64,000 nucleotides of DNA from Bacteroidales bacterium. GTDB lineage: Bacteria > Bacteroidota > Bacteroidia > Bacteroidales > UBA7960. Shown piece by piece: positions 47,685 to 63,953 of the stretch (positions are counted from its first letter, which is position 1; each line of letters begins with the position of its first letter). The translations under genes and the position numbers were made by a program. Under the pieces are notes generated by a model that saw nothing but the letters and a program-made list of their open reading frames with translations, did no database searches and was not told the origin of the DNA. The stretch is from assembly GCA_012521995.1 (NCBI GenBank), contig JAAYLH010000067.1, positions 16,478-80,477 of the forward strand, written 5' to 3'.

Positions 47685-50291
47685 TTATTTCGCGGCCAGC
47701 ACGGCAGCCTTCCTGAGCCGCTGAATATGGCCTTCCAGATCGATGACGTCCATTTGGATCATGTAAATGCCAATGGGCGCCTTGAGGAAAGCATCGGTAG
47801 TGCCGTCCCAGTTGAATACGCCTTCTGCCGCAAGCAGTTCTGCATGAACAAGCCTGCGGACAAGGCGGCCGCGGCTGTCGAAAATCTGAAGGCTGGCTAC
47901 ATAACCGGGCTTTTCAAAACGGTAGTGGATGCACAGCAGATCCTGATATCCGTCATTATCCGGTGAAAAGACCTCTGAGCCCAGCACCAGCTCCCCTTCT
48001 TCAAAACTCAGGGCAGCATGGTATTGAGAGTTCTGATAGCCAGGGGTTCCAAAACCAACACTTTGGGCCGCAGAATGCCAGTTTGTACGATCGCAGGCAG
48101 GCATATTATAGTTTACCCGTTCGAGCGCAACGCCTTTATTGCTGGTCAGCAGGGCAAAATGCATATCTTCATCGAATGCAAACACTTCTACCTCTTCCAG
48201 GCTTTTGCCTGCCAGGGCAATAACACCCCCTGAAGTGGTCATTGAAGGCAGGGCATCAACACCCAGGAAGGCATTGGGGTTGTTGGTCATAAAGGACGTC
48301 TTTACCGCATCAGGGTTAGTGGTAAGCACTGCAAAATCCCCCGGAAAGAACAGGCAGCTTTCGGGGCTGATCTCATGAACCTGAGTCAGGAAACCCAGGG
48401 TAGTGTCCTTGGAAGCCAGGCAAAGGTCCTGCAGGTCAAGGACCTTGCCGGATCGATTATAGATTTCGATGTAACGGCTGCCCCCTTCAGGAGGGTTAAA
48501 CAGCACCTCATTGATTGCCACATCGAAGGGCTGTGCTTCAAGGGGGACGGCAACCCTGGCCGTTCTGCCTTCGAGGGGGTTGCCAGCACAATCGGTAAGA
48601 AAGGACGGCAGGGTAAACTCGTAAATTTCGCCAGGGCTCATAGGGGTTTCAAGGACCAGCAGGGTGGAAGAAAAATCCGGTCTTTGCGGAAGCACTGCCA
48701 GAATATTACCTAGCCCGAAGTCGCCAGCCTGGGGCAGGGACAAAAGGCTGCCCTCATCGAGGGACTCACTGAAAACCAGTTTGACAGTATCTTCAGCCAG
48801 GAATCCAGTCCTAAGCAATGCAGGGGGAGTGGTGTCGGGGTTAAACGCCAGGACTGAATTGGACGTCCCGGGCGTTCCTCCTGAAGGATGGCTGGAAGCG
48901 GTCCAGTTGTTTGCACCCTCACAATAGTTCAGCATGTCAATCTTTTCAAGGGACCATCCTCCCTGGCTTTTTGCGGGCTGTCCATACCAGCCATCGCTGT
49001 AATTGACGAATGCCACCAAGCGTTCTTCGTGATCGAACAACAACAGGCTGTTGCCCGCATTGGTCAAGGCATTGGAAGGCAAACCAGGCACAGCAACTAC
49101 TGCACCATAGTCTTGGAGAGCTGAAACTGCATCTTCACAGGCCAGCAGCAGATATCCACCAGCCCCGATAAAGGATTGAGGCAGAACCCGGTTACTGCTG
49201 CCATGCTGCAGGACCCAGCCTTCCAGTGAGATGGAGAAATTGGTATTATTGAACAGTTCAATGTATTCATGGGCAGGCAAACCTAGTTGTGGAGTGGGAT
49301 CAACCATAAGCTCATTGAAAACCACATCGAAACGTTGCGACACATACAAAACAAAAGGCAGGACACAGGCTTGCATGGCATTACCGAAGAGATCCTCAAC
49401 ATGCTGAATTTGCAGGGTATATTGCAGGTTCTCCTGGAAGGTTTGCGCAAAGAGCAGGCTTACCATTTGGGGTTGCATCGGATCAAGGCAAGCAATCATT
49501 GGGGACCCTGCACCCTGATCTACGGAATAGTTTGTGGTTTGCTCAGCGGTATTCTGATCGACTGCTTCGCTGAAATGAATCAAAAGCTGATTGGCAGAGA
49601 CGACCTCAAGGCGGATTACGGAAGGGGGCTCCAGGTCGGGGACTCGTTCCTGAACGATGAAATCATCAAAATAAAAGCGGTTGCAATTTGAAATGGTATA
49701 GTTGCAAACCAGGCCAAACCATCCGGAAACCGAATACGTTGCATCAAGCACAGAACCCTGGGGCACGAAAAGCTGGCCTCCCCCTGCATCTGCCATAACC
49801 TCCCAAAAGCCTTGGCTGTTGCGGGTGACCCGAATGCGGATCAGGTTATTGCTTGCGCTGGCCAGGTTCTGAAATCCAGCAAGGAGTTCGACAGCCTCTT
49901 CCCCATCCTGGCGAAACAGGAAGAGGCGTTTGTTTTCACCCCCGTTTTTTCCTATCTGCAGGTAATATCCGTTCAGAGGCCCTTTCAGGTTGGGGGTATC
50001 GCTGAGTAAGTAAATTTTTGGGTGGTTGTTGTCGGTGGGAGAAAAAGCGAGCCTCACCCAGAACTCCCATTGAGCCTCAAGGGCTAAGGTACAGGAAGTG
50101 GCAAGGCTTGCCTGCCCGGCCTCCTGATCGCTGAGGCGCAGTACCCCTTCCTGCACGGAGAACTTCTGAATGTCGCCCACCCACTCGGGGTTCGAGGTAC
50201 AGTTACCGTCACTGAAGTCGTCCGTGAACTGTGCCTTTCCGACCACAGGAAGGATTAAGATCAGCAAGAAGATTTCCCGCCTGATCATCAT
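47685..50291 (-). CDS. Secreted lamin-tail-domain (LTD) protein with a C-terminal Ig-like sorting-type domain
   Basis: The signal peptide is MMIRREIFLLILILPVVGKAQ. Two LTD-like segments are present (FNELMVDPTP...EYIELFNNT and INEVLFNPPEGGSRYIEIYNRS). The C-terminus reads EVFSPDNDGYQDLL...NWDGT...GIYMIQM. Confidence 0.6.
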   Translation of the reverse strand: MMIRREIFLLILILPVVGKAQFTDDFSDGNCTSNPEWVGDIQKFSVQEGVLRLSDQEAGQASLATSCTLALEAQWEFWVRLAFSPTDNNHPKIYLLSDTPNLKGPLNGYYLQIGKNGGENKRLFLFRQDGEEAVELLAGFQNLASASNNLIRIRVTRNSQGFWEVMADAGGGQLFVPQGSVLDATYSVSGWFGLVCNYTISNCNRFYFDDFIVQERVPDLEPPSVIRLEVVSANQLLIHFSEAVDQNTAEQTTNYSVDQGAGSPMIACLDPMQPQMVSLLFAQTFQENLQYTLQIQHVEDLFGNAMQACVLPFVLYVSQRFDVVFNELMVDPTPQLGLPAHEYIELFNNTNFSISLEGWVLQHGSSNRVLPQSFIGAGGYLLLACEDAVSALQDYGAVVAVPGLPSNALTNAGNSLLLFDHEERLVAFVNYSDGWYGQPAKSQGGWSLEKIDMLNYCEGANNWTASSHPSGGTPGTSNSVLAFNPDTTPPALLRTGFLAEDTVKLVFSESLDEGSLLSLPQAGDFGLGNILAVLPQRPDFSSTLLVLETPMSPGEIYEFTLPSFLTDCAGNPLEGRTARVAVPLEAQPFDVAINEVLFNPPEGGSRYIEIYNRSGKVLDLQDLCLASKDTTLGFLTQVHEISPESCLFFPGDFAVLTTNPDAVKTSFMTNNPNAFLGVDALPSMTTSGGVIALAGKSLEEVEVFAFDEDMHFALLTSNKGVALERVNYNMPACDRTNWHSAAQSVGFGTPGYQNSQYHAALSFEEGELVLGSEVFSPDNDGYQDLLCIHYRFEKPGYVASLQIFDSRGRLVRRLVHAELLAAEGVFNWDGTTDAFLKAPIGIYMIQMDVIDLEGHIQRLRKAAVLAAK

Positions 50292-51496: not shown

Positions 51497-52471
51497 ATGA
51501 CGCAACCACAAACGAAAGAATGGCTGGTACTGGTCAATCCCAATGCCGGCATTGGTAAGGGAAAAAAGGACTGGGGCAAGATCAGTCAACTATTGGATGA
51601 ACAAGGATTTGTTTATCAAGCTGTCTTTACCGAAAGGAAACTCCATGCCATTGAACTGGTCATCGAAAACATTACCCTGGGGTACCGAAAAATCATTGTG
51701 GTAGGCGGTGACGGCACCATGAACGAGGTGGTCAACGGCGTATTCTCACAGCAGGTAGTACCTACCACGGCCATTACCCTTGGGATGATTTCTATAGGCA
51801 CAGGCAACGACTGGGTGCGTACCTATAACATCCCGCTCGACTACTTGCAAGCCATCGAAATCATTAAAAGAGGGAATACCCTGGAGCAGGATGCAGGAAT
51901 TGTGCAATATTCTAACGATAACGGACTGGAAAAACGCTATTTTGCAAACATGGCAGGATTGGGTTTTGATGGTCTGGTAGCCAAAAAAACAAATGCCGAC
52001 AAAGAGAAGGGCAGCGTTTTGCCTATGCTTTTTCTGGTCAATTTGCTGAGCTCCATGTTCTCGTATAACTCATCCAACATCCGGGTTAACATTGACGGGC
52101 GCGAAATCAAGGCAAAGGTGTTCAGCATTGGCGTTGGCATCGGACAATACAACGGGGGTGGTATGATGCAGGCTCCTGACGCCCGGCCCAATGACGGCCT
52201 ACTTGACCTGACCATCATTAAACACATTTCCGTATTATCCATCCTCGCAAATATCCGAAGGCTTTATGATGGAAAGATCCACAAGGTAAAACAGGTCGTT
52301 TTGCTCACGGGGAAAAACATCCGCATTGAATCTGATGTTATCATTCCACTGGAAGCGGATGGGGAATACCTGGGGCACTCGCCTTTTGAATTTAACATCA
52401 TCCCAAAAAGCATCAAAATCATTATGAACCACTTGGGCGAAACTGCCCAAAAAAGCACTGAATCTGCATGA
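51497..52471 (+). CDS. Diacylglycerol/lipid kinase family protein (YegS/BmrU-like)
   Basis: The translation has LVLVNPNAG...K and the family motif VVGGDGTMNEVVNG. Confidence 0.8.
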   Translation: MTQPQTKEWLVLVNPNAGIGKGKKDWGKISQLLDEQGFVYQAVFTERKLHAIELVIENITLGYRKIIVVGGDGTMNEVVNGVFSQQVVPTTAITLGMISIGTGNDWVRTYNIPLDYLQAIEIIKRGNTLEQDAGIVQYSNDNGLEKRYFANMAGLGFDGLVAKKTNADKEKGSVLPMLFLVNLLSSMFSYNSSNIRVNIDGREIKAKVFSIGVGIGQYNGGGMMQAPDARPNDGLLDLTIIKHISVLSILANIRRLYDGKIHKVKQVVLLTGKNIRIESDVIIPLEADGEYLGHSPFEFNIIPKSIKIIMNHLGETAQKSTESA

Positions 52472-54000
52472 CCAAAGGAGAAGATATTTTCAGAAAGATC
52501 ATTTCGCACTGTAAGGAATACGGGTTTATTTTCCCTTCCAGTGAAATTTATGACGGGCTGAGCGCCGTTTACGATTACGGCCAGAACGGCGCCATCCTGA
52601 AAAATAACATCAAGGACTACTGGTGGCGTTCGATGGTGCAATATCAGGAAAACATTGTCGGCATCGACTCGGCCATTTTCATGCATCCCACGGTTTGGAA
52701 AGCCTCGGGGCATGTGGACGCATTCAACGATCCCCTTATCGACAACAAGGACTCGAAGAAGCGGTACCGTGCCGATGTCCTCATTGAAGATCACCTTGAA
52801 AAACTCAACGAGAAGATCGAAAAAGATGTGGTAAAAGCCGCCAAGCGCTTTGGTGACAGCTTTGATGAGGCAATGTTCCGAAAAACGAACCCCCGGGTTC
52901 TTGAAAACCAGGAAAAGATAGAAAACATCAACCGCCGTTTTGTTTCGGCTCTTGAAGAGAATCGCCTGGACGACGTCAAGGCCCTGATCGAGGAGCTAGG
53001 GATTGTTTGCCCCATTTCGGGATCGCGCAACTGGACAGATGTGCGTCAGTTCAACCTGATGTTCAGCACGCAAATGGGATCGCTAAGCGAGGATACCAAC
53101 CAGATTTTCCTGCGCCCTGAAACCGCACAGGGAATTTTTGTAAACTACCTCAACGTCCAGAAAACGGGCCGCATGAAGCTGCCTTTCGGGATTGCCCAGA
53201 TAGGAAAAGCTTTCCGAAACGAAATCGTAGCCCGACAGTTTATCTTCCGCATGCGGGAGTTTGAGCAAATGGAAATGCAGTTCTTTGTGAAACCGGGGCA
53301 AGAAATGGAATGGTATGATTACTGGAAGCAGGAACGCTTGCGCTGGCATTTGGCCTTGGGCATCCCTGCCGAAAAGTACCGTTTCCACGACCACGAGAAA
53401 CTGGCCCATTACGCTAATGCAGCCGCGGATATCGAGTTTGAGTTTCCCTTCGGGTTCAAGGAACTGGAAGGCATTCACTCGCGTACCGACTTTGACCTGG
53501 GCGCCCATCAGCAATACAGCGGCAAGAAGCTGCAGTATTTTGACCCTGAAACCAATGAAAGCTATGTGCCCTATGTGGTGGAAACCTCCATTGGGCTCGA
53601 CCGTACTTTCTTGGCCATCCTTTCGTTTGCCTATCGTGAAGAGAAACTGGAGGATGGCTCCGAGCGCGTGGTGCTGAGCATCCCGCCCGTATTGGCACCC
53701 ATAAAGGTGGCGGTGCTTCCCCTGGTGAAAAAAGACGGCATGCCTGAAAAGGCACGCGAGGTCTTTGACAGGCTCAAGTACGATTATATGTGCCAGTATG
53801 ATGAAAAGGATGCTATAGGCCGTCGCTACCGCAGGCAAGACGCCATTGGCACACCTTATTGCATCACAGTGGACCATCAGACCCTGGAAGACAATACGGT
53901 AACCATAAGAGAACGCGACAGCATGAAACAGGACCGCATCGCCATCGATGAAATTGCCCAAGTGGTGGCTCGCCGTATTGACATCAGACCCGTTTCCTGA
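52468..54000 (+). CDS. glyQS: Glycine--tRNA ligase (dimeric class II, GlyQS type)
   Basis: The translation has GFIFPSSEIYDGL...YDYGQNGAILKNNI and class II motifs (FRNEI...R, GLDR), plus a C-terminal anticodon-binding domain. The start overlaps the upstream stop as ATGA. Confidence 0.9.
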   Translation: MTKGEDIFRKIISHCKEYGFIFPSSEIYDGLSAVYDYGQNGAILKNNIKDYWWRSMVQYQENIVGIDSAIFMHPTVWKASGHVDAFNDPLIDNKDSKKRYRADVLIEDHLEKLNEKIEKDVVKAAKRFGDSFDEAMFRKTNPRVLENQEKIENINRRFVSALEENRLDDVKALIEELGIVCPISGSRNWTDVRQFNLMFSTQMGSLSEDTNQIFLRPETAQGIFVNYLNVQKTGRMKLPFGIAQIGKAFRNEIVARQFIFRMREFEQMEMQFFVKPGQEMEWYDYWKQERLRWHLALGIPAEKYRFHDHEKLAHYANAAADIEFEFPFGFKELEGIHSRTDFDLGAHQQYSGKKLQYFDPETNESYVPYVVETSIGLDRTFLAILSFAYREEKLEDGSERVVLSIPPVLAPIKVAVLPLVKKDGMPEKAREVFDRLKYDYMCQYDEKDAIGRRYRRQDAIGTPYCITVDHQTLEDNTVTIRERDSMKQDRIAIDEIAQVVARRIDIRPVS

Positions 54001-54074: not shown

Positions 54075-55046
54075 ATGACCCTGAATGAAATAAAGGCGCC
54101 TGTAGAGGGGCAGATTAAAGCTTTTGAGACCCTGTTCAGGGATTCGATCAAAAGCAACATCCCCCTGCTCAACATCATTATGCGTTACATCGTGAAACGC
54201 AAGGGCAAGCAAATGCGGCCGCTGTTTGTATTTTTCTCTGCAGGGCTGTTTTCCGAAATCAACGACAGAACCCTCCGGGCCGCTACACTCATTGAAATGC
54301 TTCACACCGCAACCCTGATTCATGACGATGTGGTAGACGACAGCAACGAGCGCCGCGGGTTCTTTTCGCTCAATGCTCTCTGGAAAAACAAGATATCTGT
54401 TTTGGTAGGCGATTTCCTGCTCTCACGCGGATTAATCCTGGCACTCGAAAACGATGATTTTGACCTGCTCAAGATTGTGTCGCATTCAGTACGTGAAATG
54501 AGCGAAGGCGAGTTACTTCAGATTGAAAAGGCCCGCACCCTCGACATTGAAGAGTCGGTATATTTCGAGATCATCCGCAAAAAAACAGCTTCCCTGATCG
54601 CCTCATGCCTGGCCAGCGGTACTGCTGCCACGGGTGCCAGTGCCGACACCATAGAAAAGATGCGCCAGATCGGCGAGAAGATAGGCATCGCCTTCCAGAT
54701 CAAAGACGACATCCTCGATTTTGACCTCAGTGCAGATAAGGGAAAACCTTCGGGCGTGGATATCAAGGAACGGAAAATGACCCTCCCGTTGATTTTTATC
54801 CTGAATAAATCAAGCTATTTCCAAAAGCGGAAGATCATCAACATTGTTAAGAATCACAACACCAACAGGGAAAAAGTGGATTGGCTCATGCAAGAGGTGG
54901 TTCTTGGCGGAGGCATTGAATATGCCGTAGAAATGATGACCAGGTACCGCAATGAAGCCCTTGAAATGCTTGAGCAGATGCCCGACAGGCCGGCCAGGGA
55001 ATCCCTCAGGCAACTCATTGATTTTACCATCCAGCGAAAAAGCTGA
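54075..55046 (+). CDS. ispB: Polyprenyl diphosphate synthase (trans-isoprenyl, IspB-like)
   Basis: The two Asp-rich motifs are LIHDDVVDDSNERRG and FQIKDDILD. Confidence 0.85.
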   Translation: MTLNEIKAPVEGQIKAFETLFRDSIKSNIPLLNIIMRYIVKRKGKQMRPLFVFFSAGLFSEINDRTLRAATLIEMLHTATLIHDDVVDDSNERRGFFSLNALWKNKISVLVGDFLLSRGLILALENDDFDLLKIVSHSVREMSEGELLQIEKARTLDIEESVYFEIIRKKTASLIASCLASGTAATGASADTIEKMRQIGEKIGIAFQIKDDILDFDLSADKGKPSGVDIKERKMTLPLIFILNKSSYFQKRKIINIVKNHNTNREKVDWLMQEVVLGGGIEYAVEMMTRYRNEALEMLEQMPDRPARESLRQLIDFTIQRKS

Positions 55047-55119: not shown

Positions 55120-56652
55120 ATGAAGAAAAAACGGATTTCTCTTTATACGAAAACCTTGCTGCTGTCGGCCGCAATGGGCTTTCTTACCACCTTGAGCTTG
55201 CAAGCACAAGCCCTTCCCGAAATCAAAAAACACGATCCTTCCCTGATTGGCAAGGGAACCACCCTTGAGGGCGTTAAACAAGGACTCTGGAACTATTTCG
55301 ATGAACAGGACCATTTGCTTGAAAGCGGCCATTATGCTGATGGCAAGCGCATTGGTCTTTGGACCTTCTTCGATGAGCAGCAACAGAAGTCAGCGCAAAT
55401 AGATTACGACAGCCTGTATTATCGCGAATTCTTCCCAAACGGCGATGTTTCAGTTCAGGGTCCCCTGAATGATACTCTGGAAAGATCAGATCTTTGGACC
55501 TACTACCACCTGGAAATGCAGCCCTGGGCTAGGGGCCATTATCGCAAAGGAAAACAAACAGGCACCTGGAAATTCTGGTATCCCGACGGCAAGAAAAACG
55601 CTGAAGTCGTCATGGAACAAGGCATCACCACCTGGTGGTATTATAATGGAAATATCGAGATGACAGGACCTGTGAAAGCAGGCCAGCTCGACGGTGAATG
55701 GACTTACTATTATGAGTCGGGTGTCCTCAGGGAAAAGAGCGTATACAAAAACAGTAGGCAAGAAGGCATCTCGCGATTGTATTATGAAAACGGGCAACCT
55801 GAATTTGAAGGCAACTTTAAAGAAGGCATGCTCAACGGGTTTTCAAAATGGTATTATGAAAACGGACAGCTGGAATCGGCTGGTAAGTCTGTCATGGATG
55901 TACAGGACAGCACCTGGACCTTTTATTACCAGAACGGGAACATTTCCTCGCATGGGGATTTCGTGGACGGGAAGGAAAACGGCACCTGGACATTCTATTA
56001 CACCACCGGTGAGAAGCTGCGTCAGGGTCCTATGGTCAATGGGGGGCGCAACGGCGAATGGACCACTTGGTATACAGGAGGCGAGGTAAGTCATCAGGGC
56101 CCCTTCGTCAACGACCAGGAGCATGGCCTGTGGGCCAGCTTTTACGAGAACGGACAGATGCAGGATCGCGGCACTTTTACCAATGGGAAAATGGATCAGC
56201 TTTGGGAAGGATGGTTTGTCAACGGAACCAAACGCTATGAGGTACGCTATGCTAATGGTGAACGTCATGGCCTGTCGAGTCACTGGTACGAGAATGGGAA
56301 ACCCCGCCAGAGTGCCGAATACCGGGAAGGCCTCAACCACGGACGCTGGATTCGCTGGCAAGACAATGGCAACATCCTGGAGGAAGGTCCGTTTTCCCTG
56401 GGTGAGCGTTCGGGATTATGGGTGTATTATGACGGCGGAGGCAGAAAATTCAGGGAACAGGAATTCAATGCCAGCAAAGCCCATGGACGCTTCACCACCT
56501 TTTACCCAGATGGCAGCAAGGAACAGGAAGGATTCTTTGTCGAAGGGCAGCGCCACGGAAACTGGACCTCCTGGGGGCCCGATGGAAAGGTGGAACGGAA
56601 CATGACATTTGACATGGGAAAGATGGTCAACCAAAAGGATCACACCAGATAG
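55120..56652 (+). CDS. MORN-variant (YwqK-like) repeat protein, secreted
   Basis: After the signal peptide there are about 17 repeats of the pattern G-x-W-x-x-(Y/W)-Y-x-N-G-x...G-x-(F/Y)-x-x-G-K-x-x-G. Confidence 0.7.
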   Translation: MKKKRISLYTKTLLLSAAMGFLTTLSLQAQALPEIKKHDPSLIGKGTTLEGVKQGLWNYFDEQDHLLESGHYADGKRIGLWTFFDEQQQKSAQIDYDSLYYREFFPNGDVSVQGPLNDTLERSDLWTYYHLEMQPWARGHYRKGKQTGTWKFWYPDGKKNAEVVMEQGITTWWYYNGNIEMTGPVKAGQLDGEWTYYYESGVLREKSVYKNSRQEGISRLYYENGQPEFEGNFKEGMLNGFSKWYYENGQLESAGKSVMDVQDSTWTFYYQNGNISSHGDFVDGKENGTWTFYYTTGEKLRQGPMVNGGRNGEWTTWYTGGEVSHQGPFVNDQEHGLWASFYENGQMQDRGTFTNGKMDQLWEGWFVNGTKRYEVRYANGERHGLSSHWYENGKPRQSAEYREGLNHGRWIRWQDNGNILEEGPFSLGERSGLWVYYDGGGRKFREQEFNASKAHGRFTTFYPDGSKEQEGFFVEGQRHGNWTSWGPDGKVERNMTFDMGKMVNQKDHTR

Positions 56653-57368
56653 TTTTCCCTATTGTCCCCCCCCTCAAGGTATGCTTTCAGCTTTTGCTCA
56701 ACCAGCAGGGCGTGTTCCTCCTTAATCACTGAAAACTTCACTTCAAGCTGAGGCTTATCCCGGGCATCACGCACCAAGTGCACCAGAGGTTCATTTTCCA
56801 GGATGATCCAGGGCAAATTGTATAACACCTGCTTGATTTCTTCGGGCAGGCCGGGGGTATCCTTTCCCTGACTTAGGCTAAACCTCAGCATCTGGCTGTG
56901 GCCCTGGCCCTTTTCAGGAGGACTTGAAATGATGGCATCGCCAAGCCTGGCAAAGGGAATCCGCACTTTCTCCCCCTTTTCGGTCTCAACTTGCACAGTA
57001 CGGTATCCCACCCTTGCCACCTTTCCTGAAACCAGTGGGGTTTTGATGATCTGACCCTTTTTGAAATCACTTTCAGACTTGAGCAGAACACCGTTTAGAA
57101 AATCCCTGAGCACATACCAGCCCAAAGCCACTATCAGCACCAGGGCCATTGCGCTCTCGACCACTCCGCGATAAGGCAGACCTGAGAACACGATACGGGC
57201 CGACCAGAAAGCAAAAGCAAGCCATACCACAAACTCTAGTAAGGGCAGGGAACGAAGCAAAAAACTACGCCAGCTGCCCTCTCCGGGGATAAGCAGGGCC
57301 AGGCGGTTGATGAGTTGAAGGGCAAAAAACAGTGCAAAACCCAGGATTACTATATACAGCAGGTTCAT
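56640..57368 (-). CDS. MscS-family mechanosensitive-channel-like protein (short form)
   Basis: Three N-terminal TM helices are followed by a beta-domain-like segment (GQIIKTPLVSGKVARVGYRTVQVETEKGEKVRIPFARL). The ATG overlaps the upstream stop as ATGA. Confidence 0.55.
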   Translation of the reverse strand: MNLLYIVILGFALFFALQLINRLALLIPGEGSWRSFLLRSLPLLEFVVWLAFAFWSARIVFSGLPYRGVVESAMALVLIVALGWYVLRDFLNGVLLKSESDFKKGQIIKTPLVSGKVARVGYRTVQVETEKGEKVRIPFARLGDAIISSPPEKGQGHSQMLRFSLSQGKDTPGLPEEIKQVLYNLPWIILENEPLVHLVRDARDKPQLEVKFSVIKEEHALLVEQKLKAYLEGGDNRENYLV

Positions 57369-60300
57369 AGCAGATTTTTACTTTTAAGTTTTTCCACCAG
57401 GTAAATATCCAGGGATGGATGAATGGCATAGACCCCTTCAAACTTCTCAATGATCAATCCTGCTCTGGACAAGTCATCCAGGCGGGCCTTAACCACAGCC
57501 TCAGAGGTCTGCAGGCTTTCCGCAAGGCTTTCAATCGAGTGCCTGCGGTGCATGATAAACTGCAGAAGATAAAACAGCTGCTCGTGGGTAAGCACATCAA
57601 AGACGCTGTCAGGAGGTACTTGTATGGGTTCCATGTATATGGTCCTTGCCGATATCTTCTTGATCGAGCTGAGCCATAGCGAGATCAACAAACCGGGGTT
57701 CCCATATGACTGGTCAAAGAAACGGTTAAACATCCTGGCAAAATCCCAGGCGGTCATTCTTTCTTCCTCTTTCTTATGGTACACGAATTTGAGGCCGCCC
57801 GCATGATGCCTAAGCATGATCAGGTCGTGAAGTTCACGTGCATCGAAAGGCTTGCATACCACGGCGGCAAGGGAATAGTTCAACAATCCCGTTGACTTCT
57901 CCAGAACCTTAAGGGCATGCTCGTTAATATTGATCAGAAACAGGAATTTCTTCCCATATTGGCCGATGAGCTCCTTGATCCATTCAATAACCTGCAATCC
58001 TCCTGTTTTCCGTTCCCACCAAAGCTCAAGGTCGTGAATGATGATAACCTTACCTGCAGGAAGAGCGGTCATCACATCCAACAACTTGTCAGGCTGTACA
58101 TGCAGCGCTTGGGCAAGTGCTTCACGGAAGACTTCCAGGCTGGCCTCACACGATTTTGGAGCACGGACAATGTGAACATGCTCCTGGGAAAAGTGCTTGC
58201 GCGCAAGGTATTTCGAAAGGCTCGACTTCCCTGAACTGCGCTCCCCTGAAATGATCAGGGCACCAGGAATGCCCGACTTAAAGCGCGCTATGGCCTGGTT
58301 GCCCTCGGCAATCTGCTCATGCATGCCCACCCAGAAGTCATCGCTGGTACCCGACAGGCCAGAGAAAAGGGTGGCATAGTAATAAGGCAGTTCCTTCATG
58401 ATCTGCTGGCGTGGTGATACCGCTTCAACAAAACCCAGCAGGTCGCGGTTGGCCAGTTTCCCCGTCTGGCTTTTCTCAAAGCGGTTGGCCCATACGATAC
58501 CTTCGCTCTTGCTGTAAAGCAGGTTCACCAGGTTCTTTTGCCCTGTTTCACTGATCTGGTTTATTTGACGGTTCATCCAGCGCGAGAATTGCCCATTGCC
58601 TTTTTCCCGCATTTTCTTCTTCAGATCCAGACTCGTCTGATTGATCACAGCCGATGACAGGGGCTCAAACGATTGACGCAAGCCTTCATCAAAAATCTTG
58701 AAAAAACCGCTCTGAATCGCCCTGGACTTCCCTTCTTCTTCCTTAAGCTTGCCTATGAAATCCTTCAGCAGTTTGGCGGTTTCCTCCTGGTAACCTTCCT
58801 TTTCACTGCCCTCCATAAATTCCACGTCCCTGAGCAGGCTGAAGTTGATCAGGCGCAACAGGTCCTTAATTCGTGTTGCGCTTAACTGGAGCTGGTATTC
58901 CGTATTCTGTCCCTGCTCCTTTACCTTGTCGATCAAAAGGCTGCTCAGATAAAAACCCGAGAGCTTCCTGACGTTTACTGCCACCGGCTCGGGCTCGGGC
59001 AAGGCCCCTTTTTCAATGGCATCGAAAAAGTTTTGCCCGCTGATCTCAATTTCTTCAGGAAGTTCAGCCATCAACTCATTTACCTCCTGGAAGAATCCTT
59101 CATAGAGCTCCAGCACCTGGGGGTTCTTCAGCAAGCTTTGGTCCAGTTGGTTCTCAACAGGTGCTCCTGTTTCACTGGTCTCCAATGCTTCGAGAAGTTC
59201 TGACTGGTAAGCCTTTAGCGGCCTGAACATCCTCGCTTCCAACAGTTGGCTGAAATCGAGATTGTATTTCCTTATCTTCGAATGGATCCGACTGCGCAAG
59301 GAAAGGAACATGAAGTCGAGCACTCCCTTGTTGATAAAAAGATTCATGCTTTTTTCCCAGCGGACAGGCATTTCCATAAAGGTGGCCTCCTGCTCCTGCT
59401 TCTTTTCAACAAGGGCTTTGAGGTATTTCTTCATGCGCGGATCCGTGCCGGCATTGTCCAGAAAATTGCTGAATTGCTGAAGGTCTTCGAGCAAGTTGTC
59501 GAACAGTTTATTGCCCGCTTCTATGCGGAATGCGCGCGCTTCCGATTCCAAAACCGATATCTGGGCTTTTATCCTGTCTTTCTCCAGCGAAAGTTTTTCA
59601 AGAGCTTTATCCTTATCGCCTGCCTCCAGCCGGGTCATCTCAATAATCTCGTGCATACTGATGAAGATCTTGCGCAAAGCCACCACGTCGCCAAAAGCAT
59701 CAATGGCATAGTCATTCATCAACTCACCGGCCACTTCCATTCGCCTCAGATAAAGGAAATAACGGGCCACCTCCGAAACCCTGATCTTTTTGGTGACCTT
59801 CCGGCCCGTAAGCCTGATTTTAAACCGCTGCAAAGCTTTGTAGGTGCGCGTCCAGAAATGATCCTTGTTTTCAGCCTCAAATTCCTCCCGATCCAACTGG
59901 ATTCGAAGAAACTCAGGCAGCGAGGCCAGCATTGCCTTGCTATCCCTTACATACATCGTATTGGCCGTCTCCAGGTGCTGTTCCTGGTTGTGAACAATGA
60001 TACGCTTCAGGTAATCGATGCGCTTCCGGGCCTGGAATGAAAAGTCGTTAAGCACCCTTAGAAATGCCTTGGGTTGGGCTGCCGGCTCAACGGTTTTCAG
60101 GATCTTCTTCAGCTGATCGATGATCTTTCCTGAATAAAGGGCAAGCTCCGAATAAAATTGAAAGACTTCCCCCGAAACGGCTTCATAGGCTTCTGAATAA
60201 TAAACCTTCGTCAGGTTTTCCATAGTCTCACCCACTTTGAACACTTCCTTGGCAACGATTTGCCTTGTGGGAGAGGTGAGTTTGGCCAGCACATCAGGGG

Positions 60301-62512
60301 TATGCTTCTCCATGGCAGCAGGGTCCTTCTCCTTGATCTTCCTGCCTGGGCTGAGGTTCACTTCTTCAAAGAATGAAGAAGCCCTGATCAGCAGACAGGT
60401 CTTCAGCCCAATCACCAGCTCATTGGTTTTCCCTATAACGGTGACTCCCTTCTGAAGGGCCTCAGGCAGTTCAAGGATGCTCAGGTCGGTGTCTGAGGAC
60501 TCAGCCAGGATGACCTCGGCTTCGGGCAATTGTTCCACCCCATTATTGATGACTTTCACCCTGGCCTGCAAGCGCGCCTGATCAAGCAACTGGTTAACCA
60601 GCATATACAGGCTTTCGGTCTTTGAGCTGTCCTGATTAATGACCAGGATGCGTAAGCTGGCATTCATCCATTCCTTACTTGAAGTAATGAACCGCAGCAA
60701 GGTAAGAGCCAGCGAAAGATTACGCCCGCTTCCCGTCCACCAGAAATCAATTTGCTTATACTTACCAAAGCCGTTTTCAGCGTTATAGTTCAAAAAAACA
60801 GTGTTATAATCCTGCTTCTTGAAATTTTCCAGCAGCTGGGCAAACTTCTCAGGATTACGGGTTTTCCTTCCCCAGCCCATAAATATGGTATTGGGCTCAA
60901 AACCAGAAAAGCCATAGACCCTCGAGATGAGATCAATGCCTTCATAAAAATCGTGGCAGTGGTGACGGCGGGTAAAAACGCCCTGTTTTTTCGTTACAGG
61001 GGTATTGAAGGTATTTTTGTCGTGTTCCCTGAAAATGCCATCTGCCTTGGGGTCTTCTATCAATTCGAAATTGGTGAAGATGCCCAGCTTGCCTACCAGC
61101 GATTTCCCCATTTCGATCAGATGGGGCCGGTTCAGCTCACCCCCGCTGAACAGGATCACATTGGGCCTCCAGTTACGGGGCTCGTGGCTGGTAATGGTAA
61201 GTTTCTCAAGGCCTGTCTTCACCAGTGAAGTCCAAACGCTGTTCCAGGTATCTCCTGTCTGGAGGGTCAGCTCTTTGCGCTTCAGAAAGAGGAAGAGCGC
61301 AATGAGCACAACCGAGGCCACCAGCAAAGCGACCAGGTCAAGCAGTATCATTACCACAATACAGGCAAGCGCCCCAATGATGCTTACAATGCGCGGAATT
61401 TTGAAAGAGGGCCTGAAATCGCTGCTGGCCCAACTCTCAATGGCGTAGGTAATATTCAGAAAACCATAAGTCAGGATAAAAAAGATAGATACAATACGGG
61501 CTATTACGTTCAATTCTCCGATCAAGATCCCTGCCTGTGCGATCAAATAGGTCAGTAAAAGCGCATTGCGAGGTTCGTTTGAAGCCCCGTAGCCCTTGGC
61601 AAAAAACCTTGGGATTATCCTGTCGATGGCCACAGCCTGCAAAATACGCGGTGCGCCAAGTATGCTTCCCAAAGCCGAGGAAAGGGTTGCACCCAGGATT
61701 CCTGCAACCACCAGCTGTGGCAGCCAGGAAGCATCAAATAAAATATCAGGATTGTTAACAAGGGATTCCCTGTCGATTGTAAAGGCCAGAAAAAAAACCA
61801 AGCCCACGTAAATCATCAAGCCAACCACAATTGCCGCAATGGTGCCTACAGGAATGGATTTTCGGGCGTCCCTAAGGTCTCCCGACATGGAAACCCCCGC
61901 CATAAAACCAGTTGCAGCAGGGAAGAAAATGGCAAACAGGGTAATCCAGGGTAATGCCCCATCCATGGACTCCAGCACTGGCACACTTGGCGTAAAATCA
62001 TGATTTCCAATAAAAATGGATAATAGTGACAGGCCAATAATTGTCAGGATAAAATATTGCGACTTGATGGCCAATGATGTGCTGATAAACGTGATGGCCG
62101 CTACCAGGAAAAGTGTAATGGAGCCCACCAGCCGTATGGTCTGGAGGCTTACTTCAAATCCAAAATAAGAAAGAAAGGTCTCAGAAAAACCTATCAGGTA
62201 TAGGCTGATGCTGAATGAAAACCCAACAAACAGGGCCAAACCCATGGTCCCCCCGATGGGAAGACCCAGACTGCGCGAAATGATATAATAGCCGCCTCCA
62301 ACCCCAACTTTTTTGTCGGTGGCCACCGATGAAACACTCAATCCTGTGCTAATGGAAATAATATGAGCAATCAGAACAATTCCCAGTGTCGCCCATAATC
62401 CTGCCTGTCCAACAATCCAGGGAAGTCGCAGGTACAGGATCACACCCACGATGGTAAGGATGGAAGGCGTGAACACCCCTCCAAATGTCCCAAATTTCTT
62501 TGCTTTTGCCAC
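57365..62512 (-). CDS. Fusion protein: cation-chloride-cotransporter-like (APC superfamily, SLC12-like) permease plus its cytoplasmic C-terminal domain, a long helical region, a P-loop ATPase and a C-terminal winged helix
   Basis: Residues 1 to about 430 are polytopic (FGTFGGVFTPSILTIVGVILYLRLPWIVGQAG, YYIISRSLG). The NWRPN hallmark sits near residue 447 (about 61161..61175), and the cytoplasmic domain runs to about residue 720. Residues 720 to 1390 are helical or coiled-coil. Walker A is GERSSGKSS (about 58220..58248) and Walker-B-like is VIIIHDLE (about 58030..58052). The last 75 aa or so look like a wHTH (SIESLAESLQTSEAVVKARLDDLSRAGLI). The ORF is uninterrupted over 5148 nt. Confidence 0.75.
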   Translation of the reverse strand: MAKAKKFGTFGGVFTPSILTIVGVILYLRLPWIVGQAGLWATLGIVLIAHIISISTGLSVSSVATDKKVGVGGGYYIISRSLGLPIGGTMGLALFVGFSFSISLYLIGFSETFLSYFGFEVSLQTIRLVGSITLFLVAAITFISTSLAIKSQYFILTIIGLSLLSIFIGNHDFTPSVPVLESMDGALPWITLFAIFFPAATGFMAGVSMSGDLRDARKSIPVGTIAAIVVGLMIYVGLVFFLAFTIDRESLVNNPDILFDASWLPQLVVAGILGATLSSALGSILGAPRILQAVAIDRIIPRFFAKGYGASNEPRNALLLTYLIAQAGILIGELNVIARIVSIFFILTYGFLNITYAIESWASSDFRPSFKIPRIVSIIGALACIVVMILLDLVALLVASVVLIALFLFLKRKELTLQTGDTWNSVWTSLVKTGLEKLTITSHEPRNWRPNVILFSGGELNRPHLIEMGKSLVGKLGIFTNFELIEDPKADGIFREHDKNTFNTPVTKKQGVFTRRHHCHDFYEGIDLISRVYGFSGFEPNTIFMGWGRKTRNPEKFAQLLENFKKQDYNTVFLNYNAENGFGKYKQIDFWWTGSGRNLSLALTLLRFITSSKEWMNASLRILVINQDSSKTESLYMLVNQLLDQARLQARVKVINNGVEQLPEAEVILAESSDTDLSILELPEALQKGVTVIGKTNELVIGLKTCLLIRASSFFEEVNLSPGRKIKEKDPAAMEKHTPDVLAKLTSPTRQIVAKEVFKVGETMENLTKVYYSEAYEAVSGEVFQFYSELALYSGKIIDQLKKILKTVEPAAQPKAFLRVLNDFSFQARKRIDYLKRIIVHNQEQHLETANTMYVRDSKAMLASLPEFLRIQLDREEFEAENKDHFWTRTYKALQRFKIRLTGRKVTKKIRVSEVARYFLYLRRMEVAGELMNDYAIDAFGDVVALRKIFISMHEIIEMTRLEAGDKDKALEKLSLEKDRIKAQISVLESEARAFRIEAGNKLFDNLLEDLQQFSNFLDNAGTDPRMKKYLKALVEKKQEQEATFMEMPVRWEKSMNLFINKGVLDFMFLSLRSRIHSKIRKYNLDFSQLLEARMFRPLKAYQSELLEALETSETGAPVENQLDQSLLKNPQVLELYEGFFQEVNELMAELPEEIEISGQNFFDAIEKGALPEPEPVAVNVRKLSGFYLSSLLIDKVKEQGQNTEYQLQLSATRIKDLLRLINFSLLRDVEFMEGSEKEGYQEETAKLLKDFIGKLKEEEGKSRAIQSGFFKIFDEGLRQSFEPLSSAVINQTSLDLKKKMREKGNGQFSRWMNRQINQISETGQKNLVNLLYSKSEGIVWANRFEKSQTGKLANRDLLGFVEAVSPRQQIMKELPYYYATLFSGLSGTSDDFWVGMHEQIAEGNQAIARFKSGIPGALIISGERSSGKSSLSKYLARKHFSQEHVHIVRAPKSCEASLEVFREALAQALHVQPDKLLDVMTALPAGKVIIIHDLELWWERKTGGLQVIEWIKELIGQYGKKFLFLININEHALKVLEKSTGLLNYSLAAVVCKPFDARELHDLIMLRHHAGGLKFVYHKKEEERMTAWDFARMFNRFFDQSYGNPGLLISLWLSSIKKISARTIYMEPIQVPPDSVFDVLTHEQLFYLLQFIMHRRHSIESLAESLQTSEAVVKARLDDLSRAGLIIEKFEGVYAIHPSLDIYLVEKLKSKNLL

Positions 62513-62720
62513 GTCGTTCCTTTTATGGATTACTTCTGTTCAAAGATAAAATAAATTGAACGGTTTGTTTCTTTCAGCCCGGCTTTTATTGCAAGTCATC
62601 TCCTTCCATTCATACAGACTATGAAGATAATTTTTTTATTTTTGTTAGGCCTGATTCGTTTTAAGAAACCTGCGAAAAAGGAGTTTTCCGGATTTTTGAA
62701 TAAATGAAATAAACCACCCC

Positions 62721-63953
62721 ATGGACGTGCAAACCACTTTAATCATAGTCTTTGTAGGGGTTTTGGTTTTCCTCGCCCATCTCTTTGCCGAATTTTTCCG
62801 CAGCCAGAAAATTCCCGATGTCTTAATGCTTATTATTATTGGCTTGGTGCTGGGGCCCCTGACCGGATTCGTTAACCCCAAATCCTTTGGAGGGATTGGC
62901 AGTGTCTTTGCCAACATTACTCTGGTCATTATATTGTTTGAAGGAGGAACCAGCCTGCGATTCGATGTCCTGCGAACAGCCATCAGGGGTTCAGCCAGCC
63001 TGACAACCGTAAATTTTGTTATCAGCGCCATCATTATTGGCATAGTGACCCTGACCGTATTCGGTTTCGATCCCATTCTCGCATTTATGCTGGGCGCCTT
63101 CCTGGGCGGAACAGCTTCGGCAATTGTAATCCCAATGGTGGGGCAGCTTAATATTCAACCCGAATCTAAAACAATCCTGATCCTTGAGTCAGCCGTCAGC
63201 GATGTTCTTTGCTTAGTGGTCGGATTAACCTTTTTTGAAGCCTTAAACCTTGGTCAACTTAGGTTCGGAAGTATGCTGATGAGCATTATAGCAGGGTTTG
63301 CCTTCTCAACAGTCATAGGCATACTGGGAGGATTTGGATGGTCATTCCTGATCAATAAAGTCCGCAACCTGCAAAACTCAATCTTTACCACGCCCGCTTT
63401 CGTGTTTATCGTTTACGGCATAGCCGAACTCCTGGGATTCAGCGGGGCCATCGCAGCCCTTATGTTTGGCATTACCCTGGCGAACATTGACGTGATACCA
63501 AAACCCCTCCTGCAGCGGTATACCCGTTTTATTCCTCATACCCTAAATGAAACAGAGCGGATTTTCTTTTCTGAGGCAGTCTTCCTGCTCAAAACCTTTT
63601 TCTTCGTTTATATTGGCATTTCGATTGTCCTGACAGATTACTTCTCTATTGCCATTGGAGGTATACTAACCCTGCTGGTATTCACGTTCCGAATCCCCAT
63701 TGTCAGGATCTCCGTAAGACCCTCTATTCCTGTCTACGACCGGATAATCATGTCGATGATGGTCCCAAAGGGTCTTGCCGCAGCCGTGCTGGCCTCCCTG
63801 CCCGCACAGGCAGGCCTGCCCGGGGGCGAACTCATCCAGAACATCACCTATTCCACCGTCCTGATCAGCATCGTCCTCAACTCAATCCTTATTATGCTCA
63901 ACAACAGGGTGCCCCTGATGGGAAAAGCTTACACCTTCCTGTTGAAACCTTAA
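62721..63953 (+). CDS. Cation:proton antiporter (CPA1/NhaP-like Na+/H+ exchanger), transmembrane core only
   Basis: The 410-aa polytopic product has FFRSQKIPDVLMLIIIGLVLGP and ILFEGGTSL blocks typical of the Na_H_Exchanger family. Confidence 0.8.
   Translation: MDVQTTLIIVFVGVLVFLAHLFAEFFRSQKIPDVLMLIIIGLVLGPLTGFVNPKSFGGIGSVFANITLVIILFEGGTSLRFDVLRTAIRGSASLTTVNFVISAIIIGIVTLTVFGFDPILAFMLGAFLGGTASAIVIPMVGQLNIQPESKTILILESAVSDVLCLVVGLTFFEALNLGQLRFGSMLMSIIAGFAFSTVIGILGGFGWSFLINKVRNLQNSIFTTPAFVFIVYGIAELLGFSGAIAALMFGITLANIDVIPKPLLQRYTRFIPHTLNETERIFFSEAVFLLKTFFFVYIGISIVLTDYFSIAIGGILTLLVFTFRIPIVRISVRPSIPVYDRIIMSMMVPKGLAAAVLASLPAQAGLPGGELIQNITYSTVLISIVLNSILIMLNNRVPLMGKAYTFLLKP

Follow-up and report, generated by a model that had tools for sequence, protein, structure and literature searches.

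Architecture of the locus

The window analyzed here is a stretch of 64,000 nucleotides from contig JAAYLH010000067.1 of a Bacteroidales bacterium (assembly GCA_012521995.1), in which a single minus-strand open reading frame (ORF) joins a cation-chloride cotransporter (CCC) to a C-terminal extension with a predicted helical arm, AAA+ unit and winged helix, and runs directly into a gene for a small protein of the mechanosensitive-channel family MscS (Table 1). The existence of this ORF had been reported in a first-pass annotation made from the sequence alone, which left the strand unstated, and the motifs quoted there were all located in the translation, namely, RNWRPNV (residues 446 to 452), GERSSGKSS (residues 1423 to 1431), VIIIHDLE (residues 1489 to 1496), and SIESLAESLQTSEAVVKARLDDLSRAGLIIEKFEG (residues 1659 to 1693 of the fusion protein). 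Hydrophobic segments are confined to the residues before about 410, and no transmembrane (TM)-like hydropathy score is found beyond residue 450.

Table 1. Positions of the fusion gene, its predicted parts, and the genes around it, in window coordinates
Feature	Residues or length	Position	Strand	Basis or remark
Fusion gene	1715 aa	57365..62512	minus	GTG start at 62512; TGA stop at 57365-57367
CCC (SLC12-like) transmembrane domain	1-440	61193..62512	minus	Pfam AA_permease; NKCC1 alignment, TM1-TM12
SLC12-type cytoplasmic C-terminal domain (probable)	441-715	60368..61192	minus	From RNWRPN; KCC/NKCC1 alignments
Variable acidic linker	716-750	60263..60367	minus	Lowest conservation in the protein; pLDDT <50 at A2 positions 16-39
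Helical domain	751-1300	58613..60262	minus	Predicted model m732920acb9e9
Second linker	1301-1389	58346..58612	minus	Near-invariant LLYSKSEG (1331-1338) and LPYYYxxLFSG (1375-1385)
AAA+ nucleotide-binding base (predicted)	1390-1555	57848..58345	minus	Model m9b1b5d34f8cd; Foldseek
AAA+ lid (predicted)	1556-1632	57617..57847	minus	Invariant R1568-H1569 and G1604-N-P-G1607
C-terminal winged-helix domain (predicted)	1633-1715	57368..57616	minus	Modeled H-beta-H-H-beta-beta layout
Small MscS-family protein	242 aa	56640..57368	minus	ATG overlaps fusion TGA (ATGA); translationally coupled
CPA-type Na+/H+ exchanger	410 aa	62721..63953	plus	Divergent; Pfam Na_H_Exchanger 7.6e-38; possible functional neighbor
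MORN-repeat protein		55120..56652	plus	Convergent to cassette; position kept in 17 related loci
Polyprenyl synthetase		54075..55046	plus	Convergent to cassette; position kept in 28 related loci
Class II tRNA synthetase		52468..54000	plus	Convergent to cassette; position kept in 25 related loci

Integrity and extent of the family

A protein of this composition might be an artifact of this one assembly, in which a frameshift or the loss of a stop codon had run separate CCC and ATPase genes together. Nothing was found in favor of this; the free-standing extensions of other taxa, described below, make a two-gene ancestor plausible. Among 5.8 billion proteins, a homologue search found more than 120 relatives with 45 to 100% identity, 100% coverage and lengths of 1683 to 1763 residues, and every full-length relative came from a Bacteroidota metagenome-assembled genome (MAG); the records that were looked up carry only generic annotations ("hypothetical protein," "amino acid permease," and "AAA family ATPase"). 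The alignment of 118 full-length orthologues (1680 to 1763 residues) from independent assemblies is nearly gap-free from end to end, with a column identity of 0.3 to 0.8 across the extension, and at the junction (residues 716 to 750) the sequence is variable while the frame is kept in every orthologue. In a comparison of 81 genome loci of the CCC-fused form, the ORF (residues 1 to 1715) is single and uninterrupted in 59, truncated only by contig ends in 20, and split in 2; among the loci that extend far enough upstream, 59 of 61 thus carry the fusion as one ORF. The GC content is also alike in the two halves of the gene (0.483 and 0.493). The check for a lost stop or frameshift near the junction, a concern that the first-pass annotation had itself raised, thus came out clean, and because of the orthologue and locus comparison we reject the artifact reading, to which we assign next to no chance. 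Judged from the pattern of conservation, the whole 1715 residues are under constraint.

The two split ORFs are broken away from the CCC/extension junction, one (L076:4101-9167) between residues 1551 and 1566, within the ATPase, and the other (L055:4022-9164) near residue 85, within TM2-3; both breaks are probably sequencing errors or pseudogenes. One MAG, JAWOHT01 (Bacteroidales CWP5-1.bin.146), holds three copies of the CCC-AAA+ fusion (L053, L066, and L067), each with its own MscS-like gene, which may be paralogues of differing specificity or may reflect a mixed bin.

The family is large. A search of representatives (50% identity clusters) with the ATPase profile gave 2884 matches at an E value of ≤1e-3 and 559 at ≤1e-30, and the family is present in at least 286 species genomes; the 150 matches listed were all members of the same family or fragments of it. 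Outside the window, P0280 (1635 residues), a strongly diverged fusion encoded by an organism of low GC content, has the full CCC-AAA+ architecture and matches the ATPase profile at 5e-75, with no match to the helical-arm profile. Retention of the former match and loss of the latter indicate that the arm evolves much faster than both ends of the protein.

The transporter half

The first-pass annotation had taken the N-terminal part for a complete CCC-type transporter, and profile and sequence comparisons bear this out. Pfam AA_permease matches residues 13 to 411 (149 bits, 1.8e-43), TIGR00930 (K-Cl cotransporter) matches with an E value of 4e-114, at 383 bits under the model cut-off of 953 bits, and a search of PDB sequences returned human NKCC1 at 5e-76, with NKCC1, KCC (KCC1 to KCC4), and NCC chains ranging from 1e-57 to 5e-76. 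Human NKCC1 (7d10_A) aligns to the fusion protein across TM1 to TM12. The likeness probably continues into the cytoplasmic part: residues 174 to 656 align (HMMER) to chains of KCC4, KCC1, and KCC2, their C-terminal domains included, residues 445 to 549 and 586 to 627 align to the C-terminal domain of NKCC1, and Pfam SLC12 matches residues 585 to 666 with 21.4 bits, short of its cut-off of 27. On the strength of these matches, residues 1 to 715 are to be regarded as a genuine cation-chloride cotransporter.

Ion sites were mapped by alignment to full-length human NKCC1 (hNKCC1; 7d10_A) in combination with the published definitions of the hNKCC1 site residues (PMC9713717). At the K+ site, Y105, P198, and T201 of the window protein correspond to hNKCC1 Y383 (a tyrosine replaced by His in NCC), P496, and T499; at the Na+ site, A275, S278, and S279 correspond to A610, S613, and S614; and at Cl- site 2, Y349 corresponds to Y686. 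All seven residues are invariant in 118 of 118 orthologues, and the window protein keeps every side-chain or position-specific ligand by which NKCC1 binds Na+, K+, and Cl-. The signature looks like that of an NKCC-type Na+/K+/2Cl- carrier rather than one of the KCC or NCC type, the stoichiometry being predicted.

Compared with eukaryotic NKCC1 and KCC (SLC12, TC 2.A.30), the window protein shares the 12-TM LeuT-fold domain followed by a probable SLC12 cytoplasmic domain, with the same residues as ligands of Na+, K+, and Cl-. It differs in having neither the long N-terminal phospho-regulatory tail nor the large extracellular loop, and its C-terminal domain is short (about 270 residues) and is followed by about 1000 residues that are unmatched in described CCCs. 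Another counterpart, by description, is MaCCC of Methanosarcina acetivorans, a stand-alone prokaryotic CCC of about the size of residues 1 to 720 with a compact dimerizing C-terminal domain, the structure of which is attributed to Warmuth et al. (2009) in a passage of PMC4301019. MaCCC, however, stops after its C-terminal domain, and it was absent among the PDB sequence matches.

The helical arm and its linkers

The extension begins with the acidic linker and continues into about 550 residues of long helices, in line with the helical stretch that the first-pass annotation had predicted after the transporter. An AlphaFold model of residues 690 to 1345 (A2; m732920acb9e9, from a 19-sequence alignment) has a mean predicted local distance difference test score (pLDDT) of 78.5 and consists of a disordered linker and then helices of 50 to 78 residues broken by two small beta-hairpins. 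The arm probably arose by internal duplication, as suggested by a weak internal repeat between its halves (hhalign, E = 0.007, probability 5%) and by the motif LPExIxI ... V.VRK..FYL, which occurs twice. Neither the Pfam scan nor the PDB sequence-profile search gave any match to the arm, and Foldseek against the PDB found no significant fold match (best E value, 0.02). Membrane pyrophosphatases, dynein stalks, and ClyA-type toxins were considered as relatives of the arm and set aside, their matches (E values of 0.02 to 2, TM scores of about 0.1) being taken as generic long-helix noise.

The second linker is conserved in places and otherwise flexible. Besides its two near-invariant motifs, the invariant positions in the region modeled as A1 (see below) include Y1333, S1336, P1367, L1375, P1376, Y1379, L1382, F1383, and G1385. 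LLYSKSEG lies in a region of the A1 model with a pLDDT below 50, and both LLYSKSEG and LPYYYxxLFSG reappear in the free-standing and CPA-fused relatives described below; they are candidates for docking or hinge elements.

The AAA+ unit

An AlphaFold model of residues 1330 to 1715 (A1; m9b1b5d34f8cd, 24 sequences) has a pLDDT of 87.3 and a predicted TM score of 0.84; in it, an alpha/beta P-loop domain is followed by a helical lid and, at the terminus, by a winged helix. The best Foldseek matches are archaeal Orc1/Cdc6 proteins, led by 2qby_B (1.7e-8, probability 1.0, about 390 aligned columns over all three parts) and followed by 1w5t, 2v1u, and 1fnn (to 1.8e-7) and then by eukaryotic ORC/Cdc6 subunits, RFC, and RuvB; Apaf-1 and plant NLRs match at about 1.6e-6, and the archaeal ATPase PABY2304 (2qen) matches at 1.7e-6. 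The first-pass annotation had proposed a P-loop NTPase resembling Orc1/Cdc6 or the archaeal ATPase/DUF234 type, and both likenesses are found again at the level of fold. In sequence, the Pfam matches are all under the curated cut-offs: AAA_16 in 24 of 24 members (25 to 27 bits against 32.6), nSTAND3 in 15 of 24, ATPase_2 in 7 of 24, and also AAA_14 and AAA_22. With the A1 profile, no Orc/Cdc6 chain was found among PDB sequences at an E value of ≤10.

In the orthologues, the Walker A motif has invariant G1423, G1428, and K1429, with S or T at 1430 (118 of 118). The Walker B motif reads V-I-I-I, then N (57), Q (32), H (26), or D (3), then D1494 (118), L, and finally E (72), G (39), or A (7), leaving one invariant acidic residue; in the CPA-fused form the position reads E-D. 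N1530, also invariant, lies where beta4 ends, at what we take to be the sensor-1 position. In the lid, R1568-H1569 and G1604-N-P-G1607 are invariant; the GNPG is presumably placed where STAND and AAA_16 proteins have their GxP motif and where, again by our assumption, Orc1/Cdc6 has its sensor-2 arginine motif. Nucleotide binding by the AAA+ unit is predicted and very likely, while the deviant Walker B makes hydrolysis uncertain, and efficient hydrolysis is doubtful.

The module shares with archaeal Orc1/Cdc6 (2qby, 2v1u, 1w5t, and 1fnn) the layout of base, lid, and winged helix, and its model has two helices between beta2 and beta3, a feature of the initiator clade. It differs in its low sequence identity (10 to 13%), the lack of a sequence-profile match, a Walker B without DE, and an acidic third helix in the winged helix, and in being joined to or paired with membrane transporters rather than replication origins. 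The archaeal ATPase/DUF234 group (PF01637 ATPase_2; 2qen) and the AAA_16/STAND proteins likewise share the P-loop, helical lid, and winged helix, together with a GxP-like lid motif, but the matches to them lie below cut-offs, and the window protein carries its large helical arm N-terminal to the ATPase. Unlike STAND proteins, moreover, it ends at the winged helix (residue 1715) and has no C-terminal repeat sensor, and the nSTAND3, nSTAND5, and nSTAND6 matches are under the cut-offs. The extension lies outside all Pfam and NCBIfam models and hence is no standard appendage described for the transporter family, which is one of the outcomes that the first-pass annotation had listed as refuting its reading. 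Going by the model, we would class the module as an AAA+ switch of the Orc1/Cdc6-like (initiator/STAND-related) kind, outside every curated family.

An autonomous module with a constant MscS-family partner

Free-standing forms of the extension were traced from short ATPase-profile matches with unaligned N-termini and then through their contigs, and some of these short matches proved to be complete genes rather than fragments. These free-standing proteins have 946 to 996 residues. Two of them, P0223 (986 residues) and P0235 (946 residues), match the helical profile at 3e-40 and 5e-19, respectively, and the ATPase/winged-helix profile at 1e-100, and neither has a membrane segment. The P0223 clade comprises at least 14 clusters of 879 to 996 residues, one of them a partial record, and its members with a family name are Cyclobacteriaceae; the P0235 clade has at least two members. 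Word-index homologue searches started from the free-standing proteins gave 15 and 3 matches. In all seven free-standing loci examined (L082-L088), a divergent CPA Na+/H+ exchanger is followed by the free-standing protein and then by an overlapping or abutting MscS-like gene of 222 to 241 residues, and in one pair of these loci a Na_H_Exchanger-Usp gene lies shortly downstream.

A third architecture carries the module on a CPA exchanger. P0282 (1498 residues) and L090:3962-8479 (1505 residues) are 51% identical over their full length and match Na_H_Exchanger (PF00999) in their N-termini at 6e-25 and 1.4e-22; the domain was missed in P0282 by the whole-protein Pfam scan and recovered by a scan of the N-terminal 417 residues. 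At the C-terminal end, P0282 matches the A1 profile at 6e-36, and L090 gives AAA_16 and AAA_22 below threshold. Between exchanger and ATPase lie about 700 residues, to which the A2 helical profile has no match. These genes are followed by an MscS-family gene of 443 or 422 residues, and upstream there is a co-directional Na+/H+ exchanger in one locus and an immediately adjoining, co-directional TrkA-TrkH in the other. Of the two CPA-fused proteins, one was added by a metagenome scan for this fusion.

The search for split versions and orthologous fusions thus returned free-standing forms, a CPA-fused form, and more than 118 orthologous CCC fusions, and the existence of the former two beside the latter makes the extension an autonomous module, joined to two unrelated transporter folds (CCC and CPA), also occurring unfused, and accompanied by one constant partner of the MscS family. 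The 242-residue partner in the window matches Pfam PF00924 (MS_channel_2nd) with 35 bits against a cut-off of 20.2 and has a weak match to YnaI over residues 77 to 153, its role as a channel being predicted. An MscS homologue lies directly downstream in 80 of the 81 CCC-fused loci, with a 4-nucleotide overlap in 58, and an MscS-family gene takes the same place in every free-standing and CPA-fused locus examined.

This arrangement could also be explained if the arm and AAA+ unit were a scaffold or assembly factor that oligomerizes and clusters or localizes transporters and MscS-like channels with no direct gating. The arm of long helices would suit such a task, initiator-clade AAA+ and STAND modules oligomerize upon nucleotide binding, the pairing with MscS-family proteins, which are heptameric, is conserved, and a generic role is suggested by the presence of the module on two transporter folds that are unrelated to each other. 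Translational coupling and the covalent link to the CCC's regulatory tail, however, fit direct control equally well, and a scaffolding role overlaps with the explanation favored below rather than excluding it; taken as an alternative to it, we consider scaffolding rather unlikely.

The winged helix and the question of DNA binding

The terminal winged helix announced by the first-pass annotation is present in the A1 model (pLDDT 87.3), and the same annotation had suggested that the protein might be a membrane-anchored, DNA-binding one-component system. In its general form, this reading would make the module an ATP-dependent transcription regulator, membrane-tethered in the fusions and soluble when free-standing, in which the transporter acts as sensor and the winged helix binds DNA, for instance at the promoter of the divergent Na+/H+ exchanger gene. 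There are several observations to recommend it: the A1 profile has a weak likeness to the HlyU/ArsR winged helix (E of about 0.01) and Pfam HTH_11 gives a weak match, the winged helices of Orc1/Cdc6, the top fold matches, bind DNA, large regulators that bind ATP, MalT among them, have AAA_16 domains, and the CPA gene is always divergent from the free-standing form and is so from the window gene as well, which is a classic transcription-factor layout.

The properties of the domain itself point the other way. Its mean net charge across orthologues is +0.9, and the exposed positions of the third helix are mostly E, D, T, and Q and are poorly conserved between orthologues; because of this near-neutral charge and the acidic, variable third helix, a role as a sequence-specific DNA reader is unsupported. 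The winged helices of Orc/Cdc6 and of AAA+/STAND modules generally are themselves built into the nucleotide switch. The genomic context agrees, in that a divergent CPA gene occurs in just 4 of the 81 CCC-fused loci, the transport-gene neighbors of the CPA-fused loci are co-directional and not divergent, and the regulator reading leaves the MscS gene (80 of 81 loci) unexplained. We therefore hold transcriptional regulation to be unlikely and regard the DNA-binding proposal of the first-pass annotation as unsupported. Its other proposal, an ATP-gated regulator of the transporter, is the better fit. The annotation had missed that the module is autonomous and paired with an MscS-family protein.

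Genomic surroundings

Other ion-transport genes near the CCC-fused loci include extra upstream MscS paralogues (27 ORFs) and TrkH/TrkA (4 loci). In the window, the intergenic region between the fusion gene and the divergent exchanger (62513..62720) has a TAnnTTTG motif upstream of both genes, TATCTTTG at 62541..62548 (minus strand, 28 nucleotides before the GTG of the fusion) and TATTTTTG at 62637..62644 (plus strand, 76 nucleotides before the exchanger start); TAnnTTTG is the Bacteroidetes-type -7 promoter motif, and the two sites are candidate promoter elements that may also be chance occurrences. A 143-residue ORF at 62645..63076 (minus strand), antisense within the start of the exchanger gene, had no match in the Pfam scan and is almost certainly not a gene, so that the true upstream neighbor of the fusion would be the divergent exchanger. 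In other loci, a pair of genes for proteins of about 263 and 122 residues lies upstream of the fusion (9 and 7 loci, respectively, including L013 and L020) and, by the look of the sequences, presumably encodes an encapsulin-like shell protein and a ferritin-like cargo.

Downstream, the MORN-repeat, polyprenyl synthetase, and class II tRNA synthetase genes keep their positions in related loci (Table 1), which places the cassette in a stable chromosomal neighborhood. This bears on the idea of an anti-phage or conflict system, in which a STAND-like NTPase would sense infection and the transporter or channel would act as a membrane-depolarizing effector, an idea prompted by the sub-threshold nSTAND3, nSTAND5, and nSTAND6 matches and by Apaf-1 and plant NLRs among the fold matches. 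The cassette sits beside housekeeping genes (polyprenyl synthetase and class II tRNA synthetase) and not in variable islands, the C-terminus lacks an array of sensor repeats, the transporter, with its invariant ion sites, is the most conserved part of the protein, and PADLOC-DB 2.0 gave no system match, only faint Csa3/CasR winged-helix matches (E ≥ 4e-4) and none for the MscS-like protein. A defense function is accordingly very improbable.

Unrelated to the cassette, an 868-residue protein at 47685..50291 (minus strand) has lamin-tail, Big_5, and CHU_C domains; CHU_C is a type IX secretion sorting signal, and this is probably a surface protein secreted by the type IX secretion system. No tRNA or Rfam match was found in the whole 64-kb window.

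A predicted cassette for ion and volume homeostasis

The explanation that we favor, and that we regard as moderately probable, is that the transporter, the nucleotide switch, and an MscS-like release valve form a three-part cassette for ion and volume homeostasis in which the module would act on the CCC through its tail. The fusion would be a Na+/K+/Cl- CCC whose tail is extended by a flexible linker, an arm of about 550 residues with two repeats, and an Orc1/Cdc6-like AAA+ tip. The proposed sequence of events is as follows: (i) the AAA+ unit would bind ATP, with hydrolysis that is slow or regulated at most; (ii) the bound nucleotide would set the conformation or oligomeric state of the AAA+ unit, as it does in Orc/Cdc6 and STAND switches; (iii) the helical arm would relay this change to the C-terminal domain of the CCC, a domain that in eukaryotic CCCs governs the cytoplasmic gate and dimerization, and possibly also to the cytoplasmic cage of the MscS-like partner; and (iv) salt uptake and solute release would thereby be set reciprocally by the state of the cell, whether energy charge, ionic strength, or turgor. 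While the comparisons above show what the domains are, that the ion sites are conserved, that the module is autonomous and promiscuous, and that it is paired with MscS, we infer the contact between these parts, the dependence on nucleotide, and the direction of the regulation.

A role in ion and volume homeostasis is proposed because the module accompanies monovalent-ion transporters and an MscS-like valve and because many carriers appear to come from soda-lake sediments and mats. About 30 of the 80 best genome loci belong to isolates named CSSed, T3Sed, GEM2, or DLM2, names that we take to denote such sediments and mats and that would fit a role in salt adaptation.

Several points weigh against this explanation. 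The habitat enrichment may reflect sampling, all carriers found are MAGs, the arm is left with no structural analogue, the Walker B motif lacks the canonical DE and no arginine finger is assignable, and the weak HlyU/ArsR and HTH_11 likeness of the winged helix and the divergent CPA gene are both what a transcription regulator would have.

A wider proposal, which we put forward tentatively as possible rather than probable, is that the helical-AAA+-winged-helix protein is the core of an unrecognized bacterial homeostat, osmotic or ionic, that is driven by nucleotide, docks on an MscS-family channel and, through fusion or association, on monovalent-ion transporters of unrelated folds (CCC and CPA), and sets uptake and release reciprocally. 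Built on a helical domain without known structural relatives, it would be a kinase-independent prokaryotic counterpart of the WNK-SPAK control of animal NKCC and KCC.

Relation to known systems and significance

Transporters with fused nucleotide-binding regulatory domains are already known, among them KTN/RCK, CBS, and the CCC's own C-terminal domain, which binds nucleotide. In KefC-KTN, Trk/Ktr-RCK, CLC-CBS, OpuA-CBS, and the ProP coiled coil, the transport of ions or osmolytes is governed from the cytoplasmic side by a domain that binds nucleotide or senses ionic strength, which is the same concept as proposed here; to our knowledge, none of them has an AAA+/Orc-like module, an arm of about 550 residues, or an obligatory MscS gene. 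The first-pass annotation had been unaware of any described transporter with such a module, and none came to light: neither a CCC-AAA+ nor an AAA+-MscS cassette was found described in the literature searched (full text, largely outside subscription journals), and no model in Pfam, NCBIfam, or PADLOC covers the extension or the cassette. In the proposed role of transporter regulator, the AAA+ module and the helical domain are unprecedented.

The on/off switching of CCCs is understood in animals only, via WNK-SPAK phosphorylation, and bacterial CCCs have hardly been studied. The locus described here belongs to a large family whose NKCC-like transporter keeps all four ion sites and bears a predicted ATP-binding switch of its own. 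This switch has been taken up by a Na+/H+ exchanger as well, always with an MscS homologue, which points to a self-contained, testable regulatory logic of salt uptake versus solute release in Bacteroidota, many of which appear to come from saline or alkaline sediments. The family offers a compact bacterial system for the structural study of CCC gating via the C-terminal domain, presents a helical domain of about 550 residues without counterpart among solved structures, and would give Orc1/Cdc6-like AAA+ proteins a new cellular job, the control of membrane transport. Should the three proteins prove to be parts of a single machine, that machine would merit its own category.

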